Part shown: positions 39,369 through 46,148 of the stretch, piece by piece
Layout: every line of letters begins with the position of its first letter
How positions within the stretch are numbered: position 1 is the stretch's first letter
From: Escherichia phage vB_EcoM-Pr121LW
Length of the DNA: 64,000 nucleotides
Sequence record: MH752840.1
Strand: one strand, 5' to 3'
Made by a program: the position numbers and the translations under genes
The notes under the pieces: generated by a model
Databases searched by the model: none
Told to the model about the DNA's origin: nothing
What the model saw: only the letters and a program-made list of their open reading frames with translations

Positions 39369-39719
39369 ATGAAAGATGGGGATAAGCTGCTATATCTTAA
39401 AGTCCCCCTTGAAATACTATCTATGTCAAAAGTTTTGAATGACACAACTGGGGAGGTTGTTGTTCTTGACTTGTATGACAAGATTGTATACTGCTACCTG
39501 CACAACTGGTATAAGCTTGGAGGAAATTCCCGCTTCACACCAAGCACAAGGAAAATTGCAGCAGATGTTGGGATAAAGAAAACAAAAGCAGCAGCGTGCG
39601 TTAAAACTTTAGAATGTGCAGGAGTGGTTGAAACATCCACACAAGGGAGAGGTAAAAGATGCACATTTTCCAAAGTTTTGCCACCAGAAGAAGTTATTCG
39701 AATGTCAACAACTGGTTAG
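39369..39719 (+). CDS. putative DNA-binding protein (HTH)
   Basis: TRKIAADVGIKKTKAAACVKTLECAGVVE helix-turn-helix-like segment; immediately upstream of palindrome array. Confidence 0.4.
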   Translation: MKDGDKLLYLKVPLEILSMSKVLNDTTGEVVVLDLYDKIVYCYLHNWYKLGGNSRFTPSTRKIAADVGIKKTKAAACVKTLECAGVVETSTQGRGKRCTFSKVLPPEEVIRMSTTG

Positions 39720-39794
39720 ACCAGTAAAAACTTAAATATCTGTACTATAAGGGTTTGTATGTTTTATGTTCACCATGGAACAGAAACTATTAAC

Positions 39795-39875
39795 TGTCCG
39801 TGATACGGACACCACTGTCCGTCACGCGGACACATCTGCCCGTAATACGGACACTAACTGTCCGTGATACGGACA
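39795..39875. repeat. Four phased copies of a 17-bp palindrome TGTCCG-N5-CGGACA (39795-39811, 39816-39832, 39837-39853, 39859-39875)
   Basis: Direct reading; centre-to-centre spacing 21/21/22 bp; copy 3 has one substitution (TGCCCG). Confidence 0.7.
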
Positions 39876-39914
39876 CATAAAGAATATAACTAAAATAACT
39901 AAATAATAAAAAAT

Positions 39915-40000
39915 AAAAGATCTAGTACTTATGGTACTAAGTACATATACTTAACTTATGTAGAATATACTAGATCCTAAGTACCATGTTTTAAATTTAT
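39915..40000. promoter_or_regulatory. AT-rich region with nested inverted repeats (candidate origin or regulatory site)
   Basis: AGATCTAGTA...TACTAGATC and ATGGTACTAAG...CTAAGTACCAT inverted repeats in an AT-rich stretch. Confidence 0.35.
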
Positions 40001-40019
40001 TACTTTCTATAGGTAGTGT

Positions 40020-40260
40020 CGGCCCTTCATTGGCACTCGCCTACGAGGGGCGAGATGCCGGGCCTCCATAGTGCACACATGCAGGTCTGTTAACATGTGT
40101 GGGAGCGAAGCGGCGCAGGCCAAAGGCCGAGCACTAATGTGGACCACCGACGAAAGCTTGCCAGCGCCGTAAGGAGTCGGTTGAGAGCCTCCCGCGCGAG
40201 TTTGGATAAAGTTTATGTGTGGAAACGGACAATGAGGCCCCTAAATCGCTCCACAGCCAT
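40020..40260 (+). ncRNA. GC-rich structured noncoding island (candidate structured RNA, class unknown)
   Basis: No ORF of 60 aa or more; several perfect hairpins (CTCGCC/GGCGAG, CACACATG/CATGTGTG, GGCC-AAA-GGCC); GC content well above neighbours. Confidence 0.25.
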
Positions 40261-40358
40261 ATAAACTATACCAAGTAAGGCAATCGCACCAGTTTGATAG
40301 AAAAGCTCGTTACAAAGCGATACAGCGAGTTTTTCTATAACTTGAAGAGGAGGCAGCT

Positions 40359-40937
40359 ATGAGTCCACGCAAAGATGACCGTGAAAAGATTGCAAAACGT
40401 TATCAGAATGAAGAACAGATGGAGAAAACTTTCAAGTGGAAGCCAGGTTTCCAGCGTAATCATTCTAACGCTCGTGATCGTAAGCATCCGGATAAGTGGT
40501 TAACACCGCCAAATGATGGCATGCAGGTTGGTGATGAGAAGGAGCTGTCACCTGGAAAAGATGGCAACTACATTCGCACTAAGGAAGCAGGTCCAAAGGA
40601 TGACAGCTATCTTGTAGATAAGGTTCTTGATGGTATTGATGTGGATGTTGACACTGCACGAAACCTTTTTCTTGGTTGGTATCGTACAGGGTTTTTCGAC
40701 ATCAAGGCTATTCGTCGTGTTTGCGATATTAAAAAGTCTGCCTATGATGATGACTCTCTACATCGCACTCTGAGACAATACTCAGAGAGATACGGTCATC
40801 CAGTCATCACTATTGACGATATTAACGAAGTGATGTATCATGCAGAGGTTGTTGCAGGTAGATTCGGTGATGCATATCTCGGTATTCTTTCTGCAAAAGA
40901 TGAGGTAATGTTAAATAAAATTTACTATGAACGCTGA
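40359..40937 (+). CDS. hypothetical protein
   Basis: AGGAGG RBS; ORF. Confidence 0.45.
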   Translation: MSPRKDDREKIAKRYQNEEQMEKTFKWKPGFQRNHSNARDRKHPDKWLTPPNDGMQVGDEKELSPGKDGNYIRTKEAGPKDDSYLVDKVLDGIDVDVDTARNLFLGWYRTGFFDIKAIRRVCDIKKSAYDDDSLHRTLRQYSERYGHPVITIDDINEVMYHAEVVAGRFGDAYLGILSAKDEVMLNKIYYER

Positions 40938-41136
40938 GGAGCGCTTAATGAACAACCCGGTAGCAAAGAACTGTAATAAGTTCAACAAGTCTGCAATTCA
41001 CACTGACAGGAAAAAGAGCTGGTCTCCTGACATTGACGAGGAGCTTGAGAGTTACTTTGAAGACCTGGTCACTAATGCAGATGAGGTTGCGATTAAAGAA
41101 TACGCAGACAGGAAGGATAAGGCCGGAATCTGTTGA
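40927..41136 (+). CDS. hypothetical small protein
   Basis: ORF overlapping previous stop. Confidence 0.3.
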   Translation: MNAEERLMNNPVAKNCNKFNKSAIHTDRKKSWSPDIDEELESYFEDLVTNADEVAIKEYADRKDKAGIC

Positions 41137-41212
41137 CAAAAATAGTGTTACCTGATAAGATCTGCAATATGATGTGATGCAATTTTAACTTACGAGGTCT
41201 ACAGGTAATGCT

Positions 41213-41455
41213 ATGTTTAAGGTTAAGCTCGTTTTTCGTTCCATGAATGAGGATTATTTAGAAGATGAAGGTGAATTTCGTGCACTGGATGATGCAATAG
41301 ATTTTGCCAACGACTTAGCTTGTATGAATACAGGTTATGGGCTATGCTGTTGGGATGGTGGTGTTCAGATCGGTGATAGCAAGATCTTCTACTTCTACCC
41401 TGAGCCTGATAACAAACAAATTAAGTATGTTTTATTTATTTGTGCTTTACAATGA
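41213..41455 (+). CDS. hypothetical small protein
   Basis: ORF. Confidence 0.35.
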   Translation: MFKVKLVFRSMNEDYLEDEGEFRALDDAIDFANDLACMNTGYGLCCWDGGVQIGDSKIFYFYPEPDNKQIKYVLFICALQ

Positions 41456-41479
41456 GGTTGTTTTCGTGTATCATGATGA

Positions 41480-41740
41480 ATATCCAATTTAAAGATGAAT
41501 TTGATGGCTTTATCTCCGGATGCTTTGAAACAGGGTTCGGAGAAGACTGAGTTCCCCTCAGAGGGCTTGATAGTGCACCACACTTAAAATGGTAGGGGCA
41601 GCCAGCACATGACGATGTGACCCCAGCCAACCTGTAACAAGGTCGAGCCGAAGCGCGGGTAATAGGCCTCTGGTAACCCACTTGTTGGGTCTTGCTGGTC
41701 CAGGACGCTGGACAAGTCGCAGGGAATACCACCCTGCGGC
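41480..41740 (+). ncRNA. second GC-rich structured noncoding island (candidate structured RNA)
   Basis: Only low-quality ORFs overlap; GC-rich with multiple complementary segments; ends at a consensus promoter. Confidence 0.2.
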
Positions 41741-41744
41741 GAAC

Positions 41745-41773
41745 TTGACAATCAGTATTTGCTATGATAAAAT
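41745..41773 (+). promoter_or_regulatory. sigma70-like promoter TTGACA-17-TAAAAT
   Basis: Consensus hexamers with 17-nt spacer upstream of 41802 gene. Confidence 0.55.
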
Positions 41774-41801
41774 CCACCTATCACGTGATAATGGAGGAAA
41801 C

Positions 41802-42140
41802 ATGGCGGATACAACTAAAAAGCGTCGCCGTAGAGGCAGACCTCTGAAAGAGGAGTCCAACGCCATTCAGCTAGAGAAGAACATCCTTGATATGAAGGAA
41901 TCTTTTATAGCGATGGTTCCAGAAGCTCACAAAGTTTTAAGAGAGCTGATGTTGGACCCGAAAACCAAACAAAATATTCGTCAAAGCATTGCAGAGTATG
42001 TTCTTGATAAGGCAGACCGAATGCAGGAAGAATATGATGAGATGTTTGGTGAAGAGGAAGAGGTGGTAGTAGAAGAGGCTGAAAAACCAGCACCTTTTAT
42101 GCCATTTACCACAGAAATACAACCTGTTAGCAATAGCTAA
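41802..42140 (+). CDS. hypothetical protein with basic N-terminus and acidic C-terminus (possible small terminase or DNA-binding protein)
   Basis: GGAGG RBS; MADTTKKRRRRGRPLK N-terminus. Confidence 0.4.
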   Translation: MADTTKKRRRRGRPLKEESNAIQLEKNILDMKESFIAMVPEAHKVLRELMLDPKTKQNIRQSIAEYVLDKADRMQEEYDEMFGEEEEVVVEEAEKPAPFMPFTTEIQPVSNS

Positions 42141-42149
42141 AATATTTTC

Positions 42150-42178
42150 TTGACAAACTTTGCTTAACAGTGTAATAT
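42150..42178 (+). promoter_or_regulatory. sigma70-like promoter TTGACA-17-TAATAT driving the tRNA cluster
   Basis: Consensus -35 with 17-nt spacer ~60 nt upstream of first tRNA. Confidence 0.55.
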
Positions 42179-42236
42179 TGTAAACATGGTCTCCCACCTT
42201 TTCTGGCGGCTAAGGTGTAAAAGAAAGCCACCCAGT

Positions 42237-42311
42237 GCCCTGTTAGCTTAGTGGATAAAGCAGCGGCCTTCTAAGCCGTTGACACTGGTTCGAGTCCAGT
42301 ACGGGGTGCCA
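42237..42311 (+). tRNA. tRNA-Arg (anticodon TCT)
   Basis: Manual cloverleaf: 7-bp acceptor stem, D-stem GCTT/AAGC, anticodon loop CTTCTAA, T-loop TTCGAGT, encoded CCA. Confidence 0.75.
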
Positions 42312-42442
42312 AGTTCTTTTTAATGTAGCTTACTTTAGCAGAGTAAATCTTCGGCAAGTGGCGGTAACCACTTTTACCGATACCTCATAGTTAGTGGTGA
42401 GAACACTAGCTATTTTAAAAAGAATTTAAATATTAGTATTTA

Positions 42443-42530
42443 GGTGAGTTAATTCCGTAGGGGTAGCGGGGCAGACTGTAAATCTGTTATCATTGCGATT
42501 CGGGTGGTTCGACTCCATCACTCACCACCA
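42443..42530 (+). tRNA. tRNA-Tyr (anticodon GTA), long variable arm
   Basis: Perfect 7-bp acceptor stem GGTGAGT/ACTCACC, anticodon arm GCAGA-CTGTAAA-TCTGT, T-loop TTCGACT, CCA; 88 nt. Confidence 0.7.
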
Positions 42531-42644
42531 AATTTATATTTTTAAATGCATAAATTATACAGATAATGGCATTGATATTTATCGTCGTTTATACTAGTCA
42601 CTAACTGCTCGAAAATCAGTGTCATTATCAGTATTGTTTATAAA

Positions 42645-42735
42645 AGAGGGTAGGGAGCAATGGTGCTCAAGCGGTCTTGAAAACCGTCCCGTTGAGGATG
42701 ACTCGATGATGGTTCGATTCCATTACCCTCTGCCA
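42645..42735 (+). tRNA. tRNA-Ser (anticodon TGA), long variable arm
   Basis: Perfect 7-bp acceptor stem AGAGGGT/ACCCTCT, anticodon loop CTTGAAA, T-loop TTCGATT, CCA; 91 nt. Confidence 0.7.
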
Positions 42736-42833
42736 TATTGTTGACCTTGTAATTAAGCGAAAGCCGGAAGCAGAACCGGATTATCAAATGTTACAGTCGT
42801 CATCGCCGACTAGCAACATTGTCAACATACTGA

Positions 42834-42932
42834 GCTAGGTAAGCCCTTTGGCAAGGGCGAGGATTTTTAATCCTGAAAATAGACGAGGTAGTCGTTGAAT
42901 ACATAGGTGGTTCGATTCCACCACCTAGCACC
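42834..42932 (+). tRNA. atypical tRNA-like gene (anticodon loop TTTTTAA, possibly Lys-TTT), ~30-nt extra region, no full CCA
   Basis: Acceptor GCTAGGT/ACCTAGC, D-arm GCCC-TTTGGCAA-GGGC, T-arm GGTGG-TTCGATT-CCACC are clean; anticodon stem and variable region are irregular. Confidence 0.35.
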
Positions 42933-42937
42933 TTTTT

Positions 42938-43013
42938 GCTGATGTAGCACAATTGGTAGTGCAATTGATTTGTAATCAATAGGTTGCAGGTTCAAGTCCT
43001 GCCATCAGCACCA
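42938..43013 (+). tRNA. tRNA-Thr (anticodon TGT)
   Basis: Acceptor GCTGATG/CATCAGC, D-stem GCAC/GTGC, anticodon arm ATTGA-TTTGTAA-TCAAT, T-loop TTCAAGT, CCA. Confidence 0.8.
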
Positions 43014-43014
43014 T

Positions 43015-43089
43015 GGCCCTGTAGCTGGAAGGTTCAAGCAAGCGACTCATAATCGCCAGACGGTGGTTCAATTCCACCCAGGGCCACCA
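43015..43089 (+). tRNA. tRNA-Met or tRNA-Ile2 (anticodon CAT), elongator type
   Basis: Acceptor GGCCCTG/CAGGGCC with G1-C72 pair, anticodon loop CTCATAA, T-arm GGTGG-TTCAATT-CCACC, CCA. Confidence 0.7.
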
Positions 43090-43100
43090 AATAGTAAATA

Positions 43101-43177
43101 CTCCGCGTAGCTCAGCTTGGTAGAGCGCCTGATTTGGGATCAGGAGGTCGAGTGTTCGAATCACTCCGTGGAGACCA
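43101..43177 (+). tRNA. tRNA-Pro (anticodon TGG)
   Basis: C1-G72 acceptor pair as in bacterial tRNA-Pro, D-stem GCTC/GAGC, anticodon arm CCTGA-TTTGGGA-TCAGG, T-loop TTCGAAT, CCA. Confidence 0.8.
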
Positions 43178-44281: not shown

Positions 44282-44706
44282 TGTCTAAGATTTACGGACC
44301 GTGTTCTGAAAAGCAGAAGATGATCCTCGAAAACGATGCAGATATTTTGGTAATCGGCGGTGCCGCAGGGTCTGGCAAGTCGTTCCTCTTGCAGTTGATG
44401 CCGCTTAAAATTATCGATGACCCCCACAGCTCTGTGGTTATGTTCCGAAGAACAACCCCACAGTTGGAAGGTGAGGGTGGACTATGGCCTAAAGCAGTAG
44501 CTATTTATAGCGATCTGCCTGAAAACATTAAGCCAAAGTTCAGAGAGAAGGATCATAAGTTCATTTTTCCACGGTTTGATCCGAACACTGGCAAGTGGGA
44601 TAGAAGCAAAAAGGGAGCTGTTGTAAAATACTGCCACATGGAGTATGTACAAGATAAGCTTAACCATCAAGGGCTTGAGTACACCATGGTTTGCTTCGAT
44701 GAGGGT
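44281..44706 (+). CDS. terminase large subunit, exon 1 (ATPase N-terminal part)
   Basis: Walker A GGAAGSGKS and Walker B MVCFDE; frame closes with TAA right at the intron start. Confidence 0.7.
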
Positions 44707-45026
44707 TAATTTGTAGCTCTCGTAAAACCTCCCTAATTGCGGGGAAATCTTTACTATTAATACCACCAACCTGTCATGGTAACATGATAGAGGCTTCGAA
44801 GAGAGATCGAAGGTATGGTAACAGTGTGTTAATTTAGATAATCCGCAGCGAAGCATCCGAGAGGATGAACGTTCAACGACTAGTCGAAAGACGTAGAATC
44901 AAGCGATTCGAAACGGGAGGGTAAGCGGTTGTTGTCGCTTATAAGATATAGTCTGGTCTGCATGGAGACATGCAGCTGCCTGAAAAATGGCGGGGCAAGA
45001 CTAGCGACCTTGCCCGAACATAGACG
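44707..45026 (+). ncRNA. group I self-splicing intron (ORF-less) in the terminase large subunit gene; boundaries approximate
   Basis: Conserved elements in order: P AATTGCGGGGAAA (~44737), Q AATCCGCAGC (~44842), R GTTCAACGACTAGTC (~44870), S AAGATATAGTC (~44940); intron begins GGT|TAATT like T4 td; no ORF inside. Confidence 0.65.
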
Positions 45027-46148
45027 ACACAATTCGAATGGGAGCAGATAGACTATCTGATGTCTCGTCTGCGATCTCAGTCAAAGTATCCATCAAGGAT
45101 GGTTATCAGCTGTAACCCTGATTCAGAACACATGCTTGCCAAACTGGTTAGATGGTGGTTGGACGATGAAGGGTATCCAGATCCGGAGAAATGTGGTAAG
45201 AAAAGATATTTTATCCGACGCGACGGTGAATTTATTTGGGGGGACTCTAAGGAGGAGTTGATAGAGAAATACACCACGGTTAACGGACTGGGTGTAGAGA
45301 TCAAGCCAAGACCGTTGTCATTCTCGTTCATAGGCGCAACAATATTCGATAATCCTGTCTGTTTGAGAGACAACCCAGAATACCTTGCTTTCCTCGAAGG
45401 TCTACCAGAGCTGGAAAAAGCTCAGCTTCTCCATGGTAACTGGTTTGCAAAGCCTGAGGGTGCAAACTATTTTCAAAGATCTTTCCTTCGTGATGCCGAT
45501 AGAGTACCCCTTGGATCAGTATCTTGCAGGGCATGGGATAAGGCAGGAACCGAGAGAACTTCTGGCAATAAATTTCCTGACTTTACTGCCAGTATTAAGG
45601 TAAGTAAAGATAGCGACGGCTTTTATTACCTGTCAGGGGATTATTGTCCTGAAAACGTGGATGACGGGAGGTATTCCACAGGTCTGGAAGGCAAGTTCTG
45701 TAAAAAGGCTGGTGAACGAGATGTGATCATCAGGAAACAGGCGCAGTTTGATGGTGATGATTGCATAATCGTATTCTCTGTGGACCCTGGTCAGGCAGGT
45801 AAGAGTGAGTTCTTAACCTCATCCAGATCCTTGCTCGCAGAAGGGTTCAGGGTTGAAGAAGACCCAATGCCTTCCAACAAGTCTAAACTGACAAGGTTCT
45901 CACCTTTTGCCAATCTTGCCCAACAAGGGATGGTGAGGATTGTAAAATCCAGTTTCCATCCTGATACTCTGGAAGCATTTCTGACCGAACTTGAAAAATT
46001 CAACGGGGAAAGATCAACATTTAACAGAAAAGACGACTGGGCTGACTGTGTAGCTTCTGCAATTAATTTCCTGGAGAAAGAGGAGGTAGCACTTCCTTGT
46101 GTGATTCCATCAATCTCATCACCTTCTATGTTCAAGCGTTTTATCTAG
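45027..46148 (+). CDS. terminase large subunit, exon 2 (nuclease domain); exon start uncertain within 45027-45060
   Basis: Frame open from 45024; 45027 follows a G and restores frame with exon 1; product size and position before the putative portal gene. Confidence 0.6.
   Translation, partial: TQFEWEQIDYLMSRLRSQSKYPSRMVISCNPDSEHMLAKLVRWWLDDEGYPDPEKCGKKRYFIRRDGEFIWGDSKEELIEKYTTVNGLGVEIKPRPLSFSFIGATIFDNPVCLRDNPEYLAFLEGLPELEKAQLLHGNWFAKPEGANYFQRSFLRDADRVPLGSVSCRAWDKAGTERTSGNKFPDFTASIKVSKDSDGFYYLSGDYCPENVDDGRYSTGLEGKFCKKAGERDVIIRKQAQFDGDDCIIVFSVDPGQAGKSEFLTSSRSLLAEGFRVEEDPMPSNKSKLTRFSPFANLAQQGMVRIVKSSFHPDTLEAFLTELEKFNGERSTFNRKDDWADCVASAINFLEKEEVALPCVIPSISSPSMFKRFI

Follow-up and report, generated by a model that had tools for sequence, protein, structure and literature searches.

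The 64,000-nucleotide stretch of Escherichia phage vB_EcoM-Pr121LW analyzed here (sequence record MH752840.1, referred to as the window) contains a GC-rich island at positions 41460–41800, upstream of a tRNA gene cluster. This island very probably represents a genuine family of structured RNAs, none of which is described in Rfam. Its core, a three-way junction of about 50 nucleotides, recurs in roughly 1,000 of 50,697 phage records (584–1,113 matches depending on the query), and all three of its helices covary. The original prediction, made from the letters of the window, had proposed phage-encoded structured RNAs near the tRNA genes, here and at a first island (40020–40260). For the present island this is borne out by the covarying junction, by compensated hairpins on its flanks and by the recurrence of tRNA genes on the same strand in other carriers.

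Anchored alignments gave the core the layout P1 / ACCU-GURRNA-AGGU (P2) / C-N-A / P3 / GGUAA / P1', in which P3 has the form G-X1-X2-(3–4 nt loop)-(optional bulge)-Z2-C. No nucleotide separates P1 from P2, and the closing pair of P1 is formed by the base 5' of ACCUG and the base 3' of GGUAA. Among 37 distinct sequences this closing pair was AU in 19, UA in nine, CG in five, UG in three and GC in one, with none unpaired, and the second pair of P3 was CG in 30, UA in three and GC in two. The covariation score of the set was 0.213, compared to 0.079 ± 0.014 in shuffled alignments; none of 500 shuffles reached it, and it dropped when the 3' partners were slid by one to three columns. Extended to 78 distinct cores, the counts at the P1 closing pair became AU 43, UA 19, UG 6, CG 6 and GC 2, and the X1:Z2 pair of P3 gained A-U; two UU cases in this larger set were probably among three pattern hits that were later set aside as false positives.

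Many members were gathered by an exact sequence pattern, the pattern-independent ones being the BLAST hits and a set of IMG/VR loci anchored on vs.8. This gene of the T4-like phages encodes a small protein whose translation includes a GxxGKS (P-loop-like) sequence, and its loci were chosen by protein homology and not by RNA pattern. In the vs.8-anchored set the outer pair of P2 changes from A-U to G-C in two loci (L270 and L285; L numbers are our labels for loci and contigs) and, on direct reading, in the second motif copy of L273. The same set shows U-A in P3 and exchanges between CG and GC and among UA, AU and CG in P1. Two other pairings were tried and rejected. Pairing X2 of P3 with the next column fitted more poorly, and an alternative fold of ACC/GGU with a GGU-CNA-GCC hairpin was discarded, as X1 and X2 vary (GC, UC, CG, CA, AC) and covary within P3, while AAGGUC is invariant. 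A candidate pseudoknot was seen in T4-like phages and some marine members, where CUGURR, from the 5' strand and loop of P2, could pair with UUACA or UACAG located 4–8 nt after P1 (T4 locus L002, 1465–1600, and other T4-like loci), or with CUAUAG a few bases after it. Its changes are compensated in L033/L266 (CUGUGA/UCACA) and in L228, and the pairing is absent in the window.

The window belongs to an rV5-like Vequintavirus. The 451 bases around the island are 95–99.8% identical to 118 phage records, nearly all of them from Vequintavirus, that is, E. coli myoviruses, and the "Campylobacter phage" records among the 118 represent the same virus type. In the annotated relative vB_EcoM_Gotham, a small hypothetical gene flanks the stretch on each side, a cluster of six tRNA genes follows about 500 bp downstream, and a predicted promoter is the sole annotation on the stretch itself. 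GC content was 0.525–0.53 in 200-nt windows at 41500–41799 and 0.36–0.42 in both flanks, in line with the predicted enrichment. The GC-rich part proper spans 41505–41745 (53% GC vs ~40% background); positions 41460–41505 are AT-rich and hold a promoter-like site, and 41745–41800 hold the promoter and ribosome-binding site of the next gene. The island had no match in the E. coli chromosome or in E. coli genomes, and a host origin of the GC-rich DNA was rejected on this ground. The complementary segments noted in the original prediction are present, whereas their excess as judged by folding energy is modest. The plus strand of the island has a minimum free energy (MFE) of -92.9 kcal/mol (z = -1.96), with seven of 200 shuffles folding equally well, and the minus strand has z = -1.65. 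By itself this suggests a modest signal, and the case for structure beyond chance comes from the comparative data and not from folding energy.

The open reading frames (ORFs) over the island are mechanical only, as the original prediction had recognized: 113 and 55 amino acids on the minus strand and 30 on the plus strand. None of the overlapping ORFs had a Pfam or PHROG match, indels of 1, 2 and 4 nt occur inside them among close relatives, and no conserved coding frame was found at the island. In annotated relatives the stretch is blank or carries short hypothetical ORFs that vary from record to record. The idea of a short protein-coding gene or gene end, such as the 113-amino-acid minus-strand ORF (41436–41777) or an N-terminal extension of vs.8 in T4, draws on the hypothetical proteins that several GenBank records annotate over the stretch and on an ATG within the T4 element that is in frame with vs.8. 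We give it almost no credence, since the indels in close relatives are not multiples of three and the T4 frame is, on direct reading, closed in Bp7 and other T4-like phages. A frame through the core itself (T-C-N-K-V-E-P-K-R-G), in which three of five variable sites fall at third codon positions, was rejected because of an upstream in-frame stop and the lack of a start codon in both T4 and the window.

A sensitive BLAST search with the island matched 118 rV5-like phages and about 460 T4-like genomes. The T4-like matches cover window positions 41623–41666 only, at 85–90% identity, and fall mostly in unannotated DNA; with the T4 spacer as query, 1,113 phage records were matched. In T4 the core is located in the denV–vs.8 spacer, and it lies just upstream of a vs.8 homologue in Bp7, Klebsiella phage KP182 and Serratia phage CBH8. 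Other phages with the core are phiWec190 (Phapecoctavirus), where tRNA-Thr and tRNA-Gly stand on either side of the 500-nt gap that holds it, Ivi (45 kb), where it comes after the endolysin gene, and Klebsiella phage Pylas. Phi92-like phages, several siphoviruses, a jumbo phage and marine contigs are further carriers, and pattern scans of IMG/VR and metagenomes added contigs of 46, 70, 120–140 and 360 kb as well as members from marine or saline samples. Genomes of 185,579 bacterial and archaeal species, one per species, yielded 104 matches to the 5' half of the motif, none with P3, GGUAA and P1. By our own estimate about 280 matches would be expected by chance for 16 specified bases in 596 Gb, so that the bacterial occurrences, all partial and below this number, were dismissed as chance. 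The element is phage-specific so far as the collections searched show. Within the 64-kb window, covariance model R1 had one true match, the core at 41621..41673; a second match at 45400–45448 (+; 14.6 bits, E ~0.015), with a P1/P2/GGUAA layout, was rejected as a chance hit inside terminase exon 2 (LPELEKAQLLHGNWF).

Identity of 86–95% over just ~40 bp between otherwise unrelated phage families might also be expected of an element that acts as DNA. On this view coliphages would have passed the shared ~32–45 bp to one another horizontally, either as a hotspot of recombination or module exchange or as a site bound by a protein, and the RNA structure would be incidental. A sigma-70 promoter directly follows the motif in three lineages (Ivi, L081 and the window), and T4-type phages have mobile promoter/stem-loop cassettes that resemble the element with its following promoter. 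This explanation is nevertheless very unlikely. Compensatory changes in P1, P2 and P3 keep pairing and not sequence, the motif lies on the transcription strand in more than 100 loci without exception, and recent exchange among coliphages is insufficient to explain the members from marine and saline metagenomes. Covariation, strand bias and indels thus leave both the DNA-level and the coding explanations poorly compatible with the observations.

ARAGORN, applied to all member loci, placed a same-strand tRNA gene 38–1,700 nt from the motif in about 42 of the 63 loci outside the T4-like phages, and no tRNA gene on the opposite strand near the motif in any of the 63. T4-like phages excepted, the association was found in at least 12 separate lineages, with variable placement. 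The motif precedes the tRNAs in rV5-like phages (+575), in a sister clade that we call class D (+520), in 46-kb siphovirus-sized contigs (+207 to +363) and in L077 (+139), and lies between tRNAs in L005, L062, L063 and L069. It follows the last tRNA in L074 (-45), L042 (-52), L212 (-38), L226 (-60) and L248 (-46); in L074 it is succeeded by a 12-bp hairpin and a U-run. In T4-like phages the tRNA cluster is located about 6 kb upstream of the motif on the same strand.

Nearness to tRNAs on their own strand also suits an element that processes tRNA-cluster transcripts, either a new self-cleaving ribozyme or a structure recognized by host RNase P, E or III, which would help to release or stabilize the tRNAs. 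In the five loci just named (four lineages) the unit starts 38–60 nt after the tRNA 3' end, and strong conservation of junction nucleotides is a usual trait of small ribozymes. A precedent exists in the theta ribozymes, resembling that of hepatitis delta virus (HDV), which adjoin phage tRNAs (PMC10879173). Like the motif, theta ribozymes are small structured phage RNAs; they sit immediately downstream of tRNA genes, and by our inspection the motif has neither their nested double pseudoknot nor a catalytic C in the equivalent junction. No Rfam ribozyme model (hammerhead, HDV-like, twister, twister-sister, pistol or hatchet) matched the island at E ≤ 10, and the junction, again by our inspection, misfits the strand order of hammerhead and HDV. 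The distance and order relative to tRNAs range from -1,678 to +1,328 nt, and T4-like phages have no tRNA within ~6 kb. We therefore consider a processing element improbable.

In all 33 vs.8-encoding IMG/VR loci, whose vs.8 proteins share 34–98% identity, the motif is found upstream of vs.8 on the same strand. A conserved hairpin, GCC-A(A/C)GGAAU-GGC, is located shortly upstream of the vs.8 start codon in T4-like loci. Two of the 33 carry tandem motif copies about 115 nt apart, in contigs L039/L263 (L039 9019–9068 and 9133–9180) and L273 (474–523 and 587–634); in the second copies J2/3 is shortened to CA, and that of L273 also has the G-C outer P2 pair. The vs.8 linkage is the best support for a cis-acting aptamer or leader, riboswitch-like or protein-binding, that would control vs.8 in T4-like phages and the phrog_3330 gene and tRNAs in rV5-like phages. 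Near-invariant junction nucleotides combined with variable peripheral helices are typical of aptamers, tandem copies are known from some riboswitches, and the candidate pseudoknot of the T4-like phages involves a downstream strand. This riboswitch-type position is, however, consistent in the T4-like phages only. The window has no vs.8, and all-against-all BLASTP of the 1,625 ORFs lying up to 4 kb to either side of the motif revealed no protein family shared across lineages, so that no common downstream gene is seen beyond the T4-like phages; the conservation of the core far exceeds that of the neighbouring proteins. Moreover, tRNA placement is variable, the L074 motif stands after the last tRNA and directly before a terminator-type hairpin, in the window, L081 and Ivi the next gene is set off from the RNA by a separate promoter, and no conserved expression platform was found. 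A cis-acting leader is in our judgement unlikely.

Class D, a more distant Vequintavirinae-like clade (L035, L078, L081, L083, L202, L206 and L219), is syntenic with the window: genes for proteins of 69 and 80 amino acids, the island, the phrog_3330 gene, tRNA-Arg and tRNA-Tyr follow in the same arrangement. In L081 the RNA forms a unit of ~170 nt with no intrinsic terminator, bounded exactly by a TTGACA-17-TATACT promoter (11/12, with TG) on one side and by the next gene's promoter on the other. The features of the island in the window are listed in Table 1.

Table 1. Features of the island and its downstream neighbours in the window.
Feature	Position	Strand	Evidence or remark
Promoter-like site TTTACA-17-TATCAT	41446..41474	+	Consensus scan, 10/12; sequence kept in rV5-like contigs L067 and L070
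Hairpin H0 CUCCGGA...UUCGGAG	41514..41542	+	MFE fold; rV5-like phages only
5' module	41547..41594	+	Hairpin CCC(U)-CAG-(A)GGG 41554–41565, CUUGAUAG, hairpin AGUG-CACCA-CACU 41572–41584, UAAAAUGGUA linker
Hairpin Hc	41595..41624	+	Outer stem GGGG/CCCC; inner CACAU-GACG-AUGUG 41606–41619
Core three-way junction	41621..41673	+	Covariance model R1, 54.7 bits, E = 3e-17
Core P1 5' strand	41623–41629	+	
Core P2 ACCU-GUAACA-AGGU	41630–41643	+	
Core J2/3 CGA	41644–41646	+	
Core P3 GCC-GAA-G(C)GC	41647–41656	+	
Core J3/1 GGGUAA	41657–41662	+	
Core P1 3' strand U(A)GGC..CUGG	41663–41673	+	
Hairpin ACCCA-CUUGU-UGGGU	41676..41690	+	MFE fold
Hairpin Hd CUUG..GUCCAG-GACG-CUGGAC..AAG	41691..41716	+	
GC-rich hairpin CGCAGGG-AAUACCA-CCCUGCG	41718..41738	+	MFE fold; 3' end of island, no U-tract
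Consensus promoter TTGACA-17-TAAAAT with upstream TG	41745..41773	+	11/12; 3' limit of island, outside the RNA
Downstream gene phrog_3330	41802–42140	+	PHROG assignment
tRNA cluster	42237–43177		ARAGORN and Rfam

The start predicted for the first promoter-like site, near 41481, would mark the 5' end of an island transcript. A C-G pair of H0 is replaced by U-A in L207 and by a G-U wobble in both L070 and L229, and in class D the place of this hairpin is occupied by the RNA's own promoter. The 5' module is near-identical in rV5-like phages and class D, despite diverged flanking protein genes. All changes in Hc are compensated in class D, which has an outer GGAAC/GUUCC stem and an inner CUACG-GACG-CGUAG hairpin and keeps the GACG loop. 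This was judged by hand, as RNAalifold on the Vequintavirinae alignment mis-paired Hc through a one-column offset between the clades. In Hd, L070 has two compensated pairs (GCUCAG-GACG-CUGAGC) and L067 a G-U wobble. The comparison among related phages thus yielded both conservation and covariation in the core and compensatory changes in the flanking hairpins. The loop of the hairpin that follows the core is complementary by eye to ACAAG, in the P2 loop and 3' strand, and a tertiary pairing is possible; at this position class D has a CCC-AUAGA-GGG hairpin followed by CUUG. The GC-rich hairpin at the 3' end was not flagged by the terminator scan and is absent from class D. The consensus promoter that had been predicted downstream of the island lies directly behind it.

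A search with the 4,227 covariance models of Rfam 15 found no match on the island at the gathering score, nor at E ≤ 10, either within a 2.3-kb slice (39900–42250) or with 41475–41750 alone (276 nt). The same database had no match on the motif in six related loci, and its matches in the window are the tRNAs and a group I intron. The Rfam check proposed in the original prediction thus returned no family for this island, and hence no known one. Neither ARAGORN nor Rfam RF00005 called a tRNA or tRNA-like structure in 41460–41800. RNase P RNA had no Rfam match on the island, and the alignment of the island to E. coli rnpB was equalled by 451 of 500 shuffles. Several shorter likenesses were examined and rejected. 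The 9-mer GAGUUCCCC (41549–41557) equals the first nine bases of the E. coli type I-E CRISPR repeat and precedes a short hairpin. A CRISPR-repeat mimic acting as an RNA anti-CRISPR was discarded, as the likeness is limited to this 9-mer, the hairpin is shorter and different, and class D has GUAUCCC instead; we regard it as coincidental. Likenesses to the 16S 530-loop (GCGGUAAU), to UGUAAU of the signal recognition particle Alu domain and to the tRNA-Tyr anticodon loop (CUGUAAN) were judged to be short coincidences or to have a misfitting topology.

Lambda nut boxB has the form GCCCU-GAAAA-AGGGC, and helix H44 of 23S rRNA has a GUAAUA hexaloop at 1093–1098. P2 (ACCU-GUAAUA-AGGU) resembles the former and has the same hexaloop as the latter; both are GNRA-like loops in which one base is variable and probably extruded. 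Here, by contrast, P2 forms one arm of a junction whose other arms are P1 and P3, boxA is lacking, and the helix order is opposite to that of the GTPase-associated centre. The T4 tRNA cluster encodes stable non-tRNA RNAs, species 1 and 2 (rnaD/rnaC), that are released from tRNA precursors. These are likewise small, structured and phage-encoded, but lie among the tRNA genes, whereas the T4 motif is in the denV–vs.8 spacer ~6 kb away; the comparison is one of position and type. ROOL and GOLLD are orphan structured RNAs of phages or prophages whose genes often adjoin tRNA genes (PMC12286853). The core is likewise orphan, phage-encoded and tRNA-adjacent. ROOL and GOLLD, however, are 500–800 nt long, multimeric and found mainly in Firmicutes and in rumen and lake metagenomes, whereas the carriers of the ~50-nt core are virulent phages that infect enterobacteria and marine bacteria. 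ROOL and GOLLD have neither sequence nor structure in common with the core, and neither model (RF03087, RF01998) matched the island, which is ~240 nt long. Literature searches with the core sequence (full text), denV/vs.8 and phage tRNA-associated motifs found no description of it. A 2023 study listed 8,495 unnamed candidate phage RNAs (DNAVirus_1 to 8495) from comparative genomics on IMG/VR (PMC10690425). The text of this study describes no tRNA-cluster-associated three-way junction, and the motif may already be an unnamed entry in its catalogue.

The explanation that we tentatively favour is a stand-alone RNA that acts in trans by binding a partner. The plus strand from ~41481 or 41547 to 41744 would encode a structured non-coding RNA of ~200–265 nt, with hairpins arranged around the ~50-nt junction (41621–41673), which would be transcribed from its own promoter or within tRNA-cluster or early transcripts and would work as RNA. 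P1 and P2 would stack on one another, and the near-invariant unpaired bases (GUAANA loop, CNA, GGUAA) would together present a surface that binds a partner, itself conserved across hosts. From the alignments, these bases appear to point to the same partner in enterobacterial and marine hosts, which may be a macromolecule of tRNA metabolism or translation, a tRNA or a metabolite. The stable small RNA would then either assist some component of the host's tRNA or translation metabolism or act as a decoy for it, and its gene would be an addition to the tRNA island, much like those for the stable non-tRNA RNAs in the T4 cluster. Such a gene is preferred to a leader of a single gene because of the variable tRNA placement, the lack of a common downstream gene, the RNA's own promoter in one clade, the intervening promoters and the tandem copies.

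Several points weigh against this trans-acting explanation. Ascertainment of many members by an exact pattern inflates the apparent invariance of the core, and the covarying cells come mostly from a few clades, so that independent events are fewer than the cell counts suggest. Folding energy is weak for the island, and z is close to zero for members of other classes, for which reason MFE structures were left out of the model. Expression is deduced from promoter matches and from the bias in strand, and a role as decoy or helper is conjecture. In T4-like phages the motif lies 60–520 nt upstream of one gene family, vs.8, which is a better fit to a cis-regulatory leader.

A more specific form of the partner-binding idea concerns the double T-loop module (PMC3664808), a pair of interdigitated T-loops with conserved pentads AG..A and UG..A, by which T-box leaders, RNase P and the L1 stalk dock on the tRNA elbow. 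The motif resembles it in its near-invariant pentads UGUAA and GGUAA, with a 4-bp helix between them, and in its link to tRNA genes. UGUAA fits the UG..A signature; the other pentad is GG..A and not AG..A (GAUAA in two members), and a three-way junction takes the place of a bulge and apical loop, so that this is a resemblance only. By analogy with T-box stem I and the RNase P S-domain, the junction could be a free-standing tRNA-binding module in which UGUAA (P2 loop) and GGUAA (J3/1) form a T-loop-type platform on the tRNA elbow. The RNA would then capture, shield or chaperone tRNAs, for example against anticodon nucleases or tRNA-directed defences. We regard this as a long shot; a new class of self-cleaving ribozyme, or a riboswitch class new to science and present in T4 itself, may be alternatives of equal novelty.

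The first island of the original prediction, also proposed as a structured RNA, is not a copy of the present motif: MAFFT produced no meaningful alignment of the two, model R1 has its one true copy in the window at the second island, and a shared 9-mer (AUAGUGCAC) was dismissed as being, by our own estimate, at chance level. The structured-RNA claim was supported for the second island, whereas the first is not a second instance of its motif. The first island (40015–40275, +) is near-invariant in rV5-like phages apart from a 21-nt hairpin indel, and two compensatory pairs were seen in four sequences. At 40045–40075 it matches E. coli rnpB CR-I/P4 at 25 of 32 positions, a match equalled by 15 of 500 shuffles, and it contains a long-range helix GGGCCU/AGGCCC with CR-V-like flanks; no Rfam RNase P model matched it, even at E ≤ 10. 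Directly upstream of it is an origin-like region (39369–40010). A 116-amino-acid helix-turn-helix protein is encoded there (phrog_12838 'replication initiation protein', HTH_36); behind its gene come the inverted repeat GTCCGTnnnACGGAC, in four copies (~39795–39880), and AT-rich palindromes (39900–40010).

Two unusual tRNAs are encoded on the plus strand of the cluster. One, at 42443–42527, scored 39 bits with Rfam, was not called by ARAGORN and is tRNA-Tyr in a relative's annotation; the other, at 42834–42932, is 99 nt long with a 4-base anticodon according to ARAGORN and is tRNA-Lys-TTT in a relative's annotation. The group I intron (RF00028, 84 bits) is located at 44697–44975 (+) in an apparent terminase large-subunit gene, of which exon 1 spans 44281 to ~44696 and exon 2 extends to 46148. 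The intron, 279 nt in length, has no evident homing endonuclease ORF.

The RNA belongs to no described family, and orphan structured RNAs in phage tRNA islands have precedents in ROOL, GOLLD and the T4 cluster RNAs. If the explanation given here is true, T4, the most studied phage, and ~1,000 other sequenced phages carry an undescribed structured RNA that is confined to phages and tied to tRNA clusters, with a core far more conserved than the surrounding proteins. Its covariance model could be used by annotators for a feature that is now left blank or mis-called as hypothetical ORFs, and a motif of ~50 nt is small enough for structural, ligand and partner screening. Experiments on it would be worthwhile, given its presence in T4 and the extreme conservation of its core. 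Phage tRNA islands are increasingly seen as modules of counter-defence and translation takeover, and a conserved RNA within them would be a lead that can be tested directly, since T4 and the rV5-like phages are genetically tractable.

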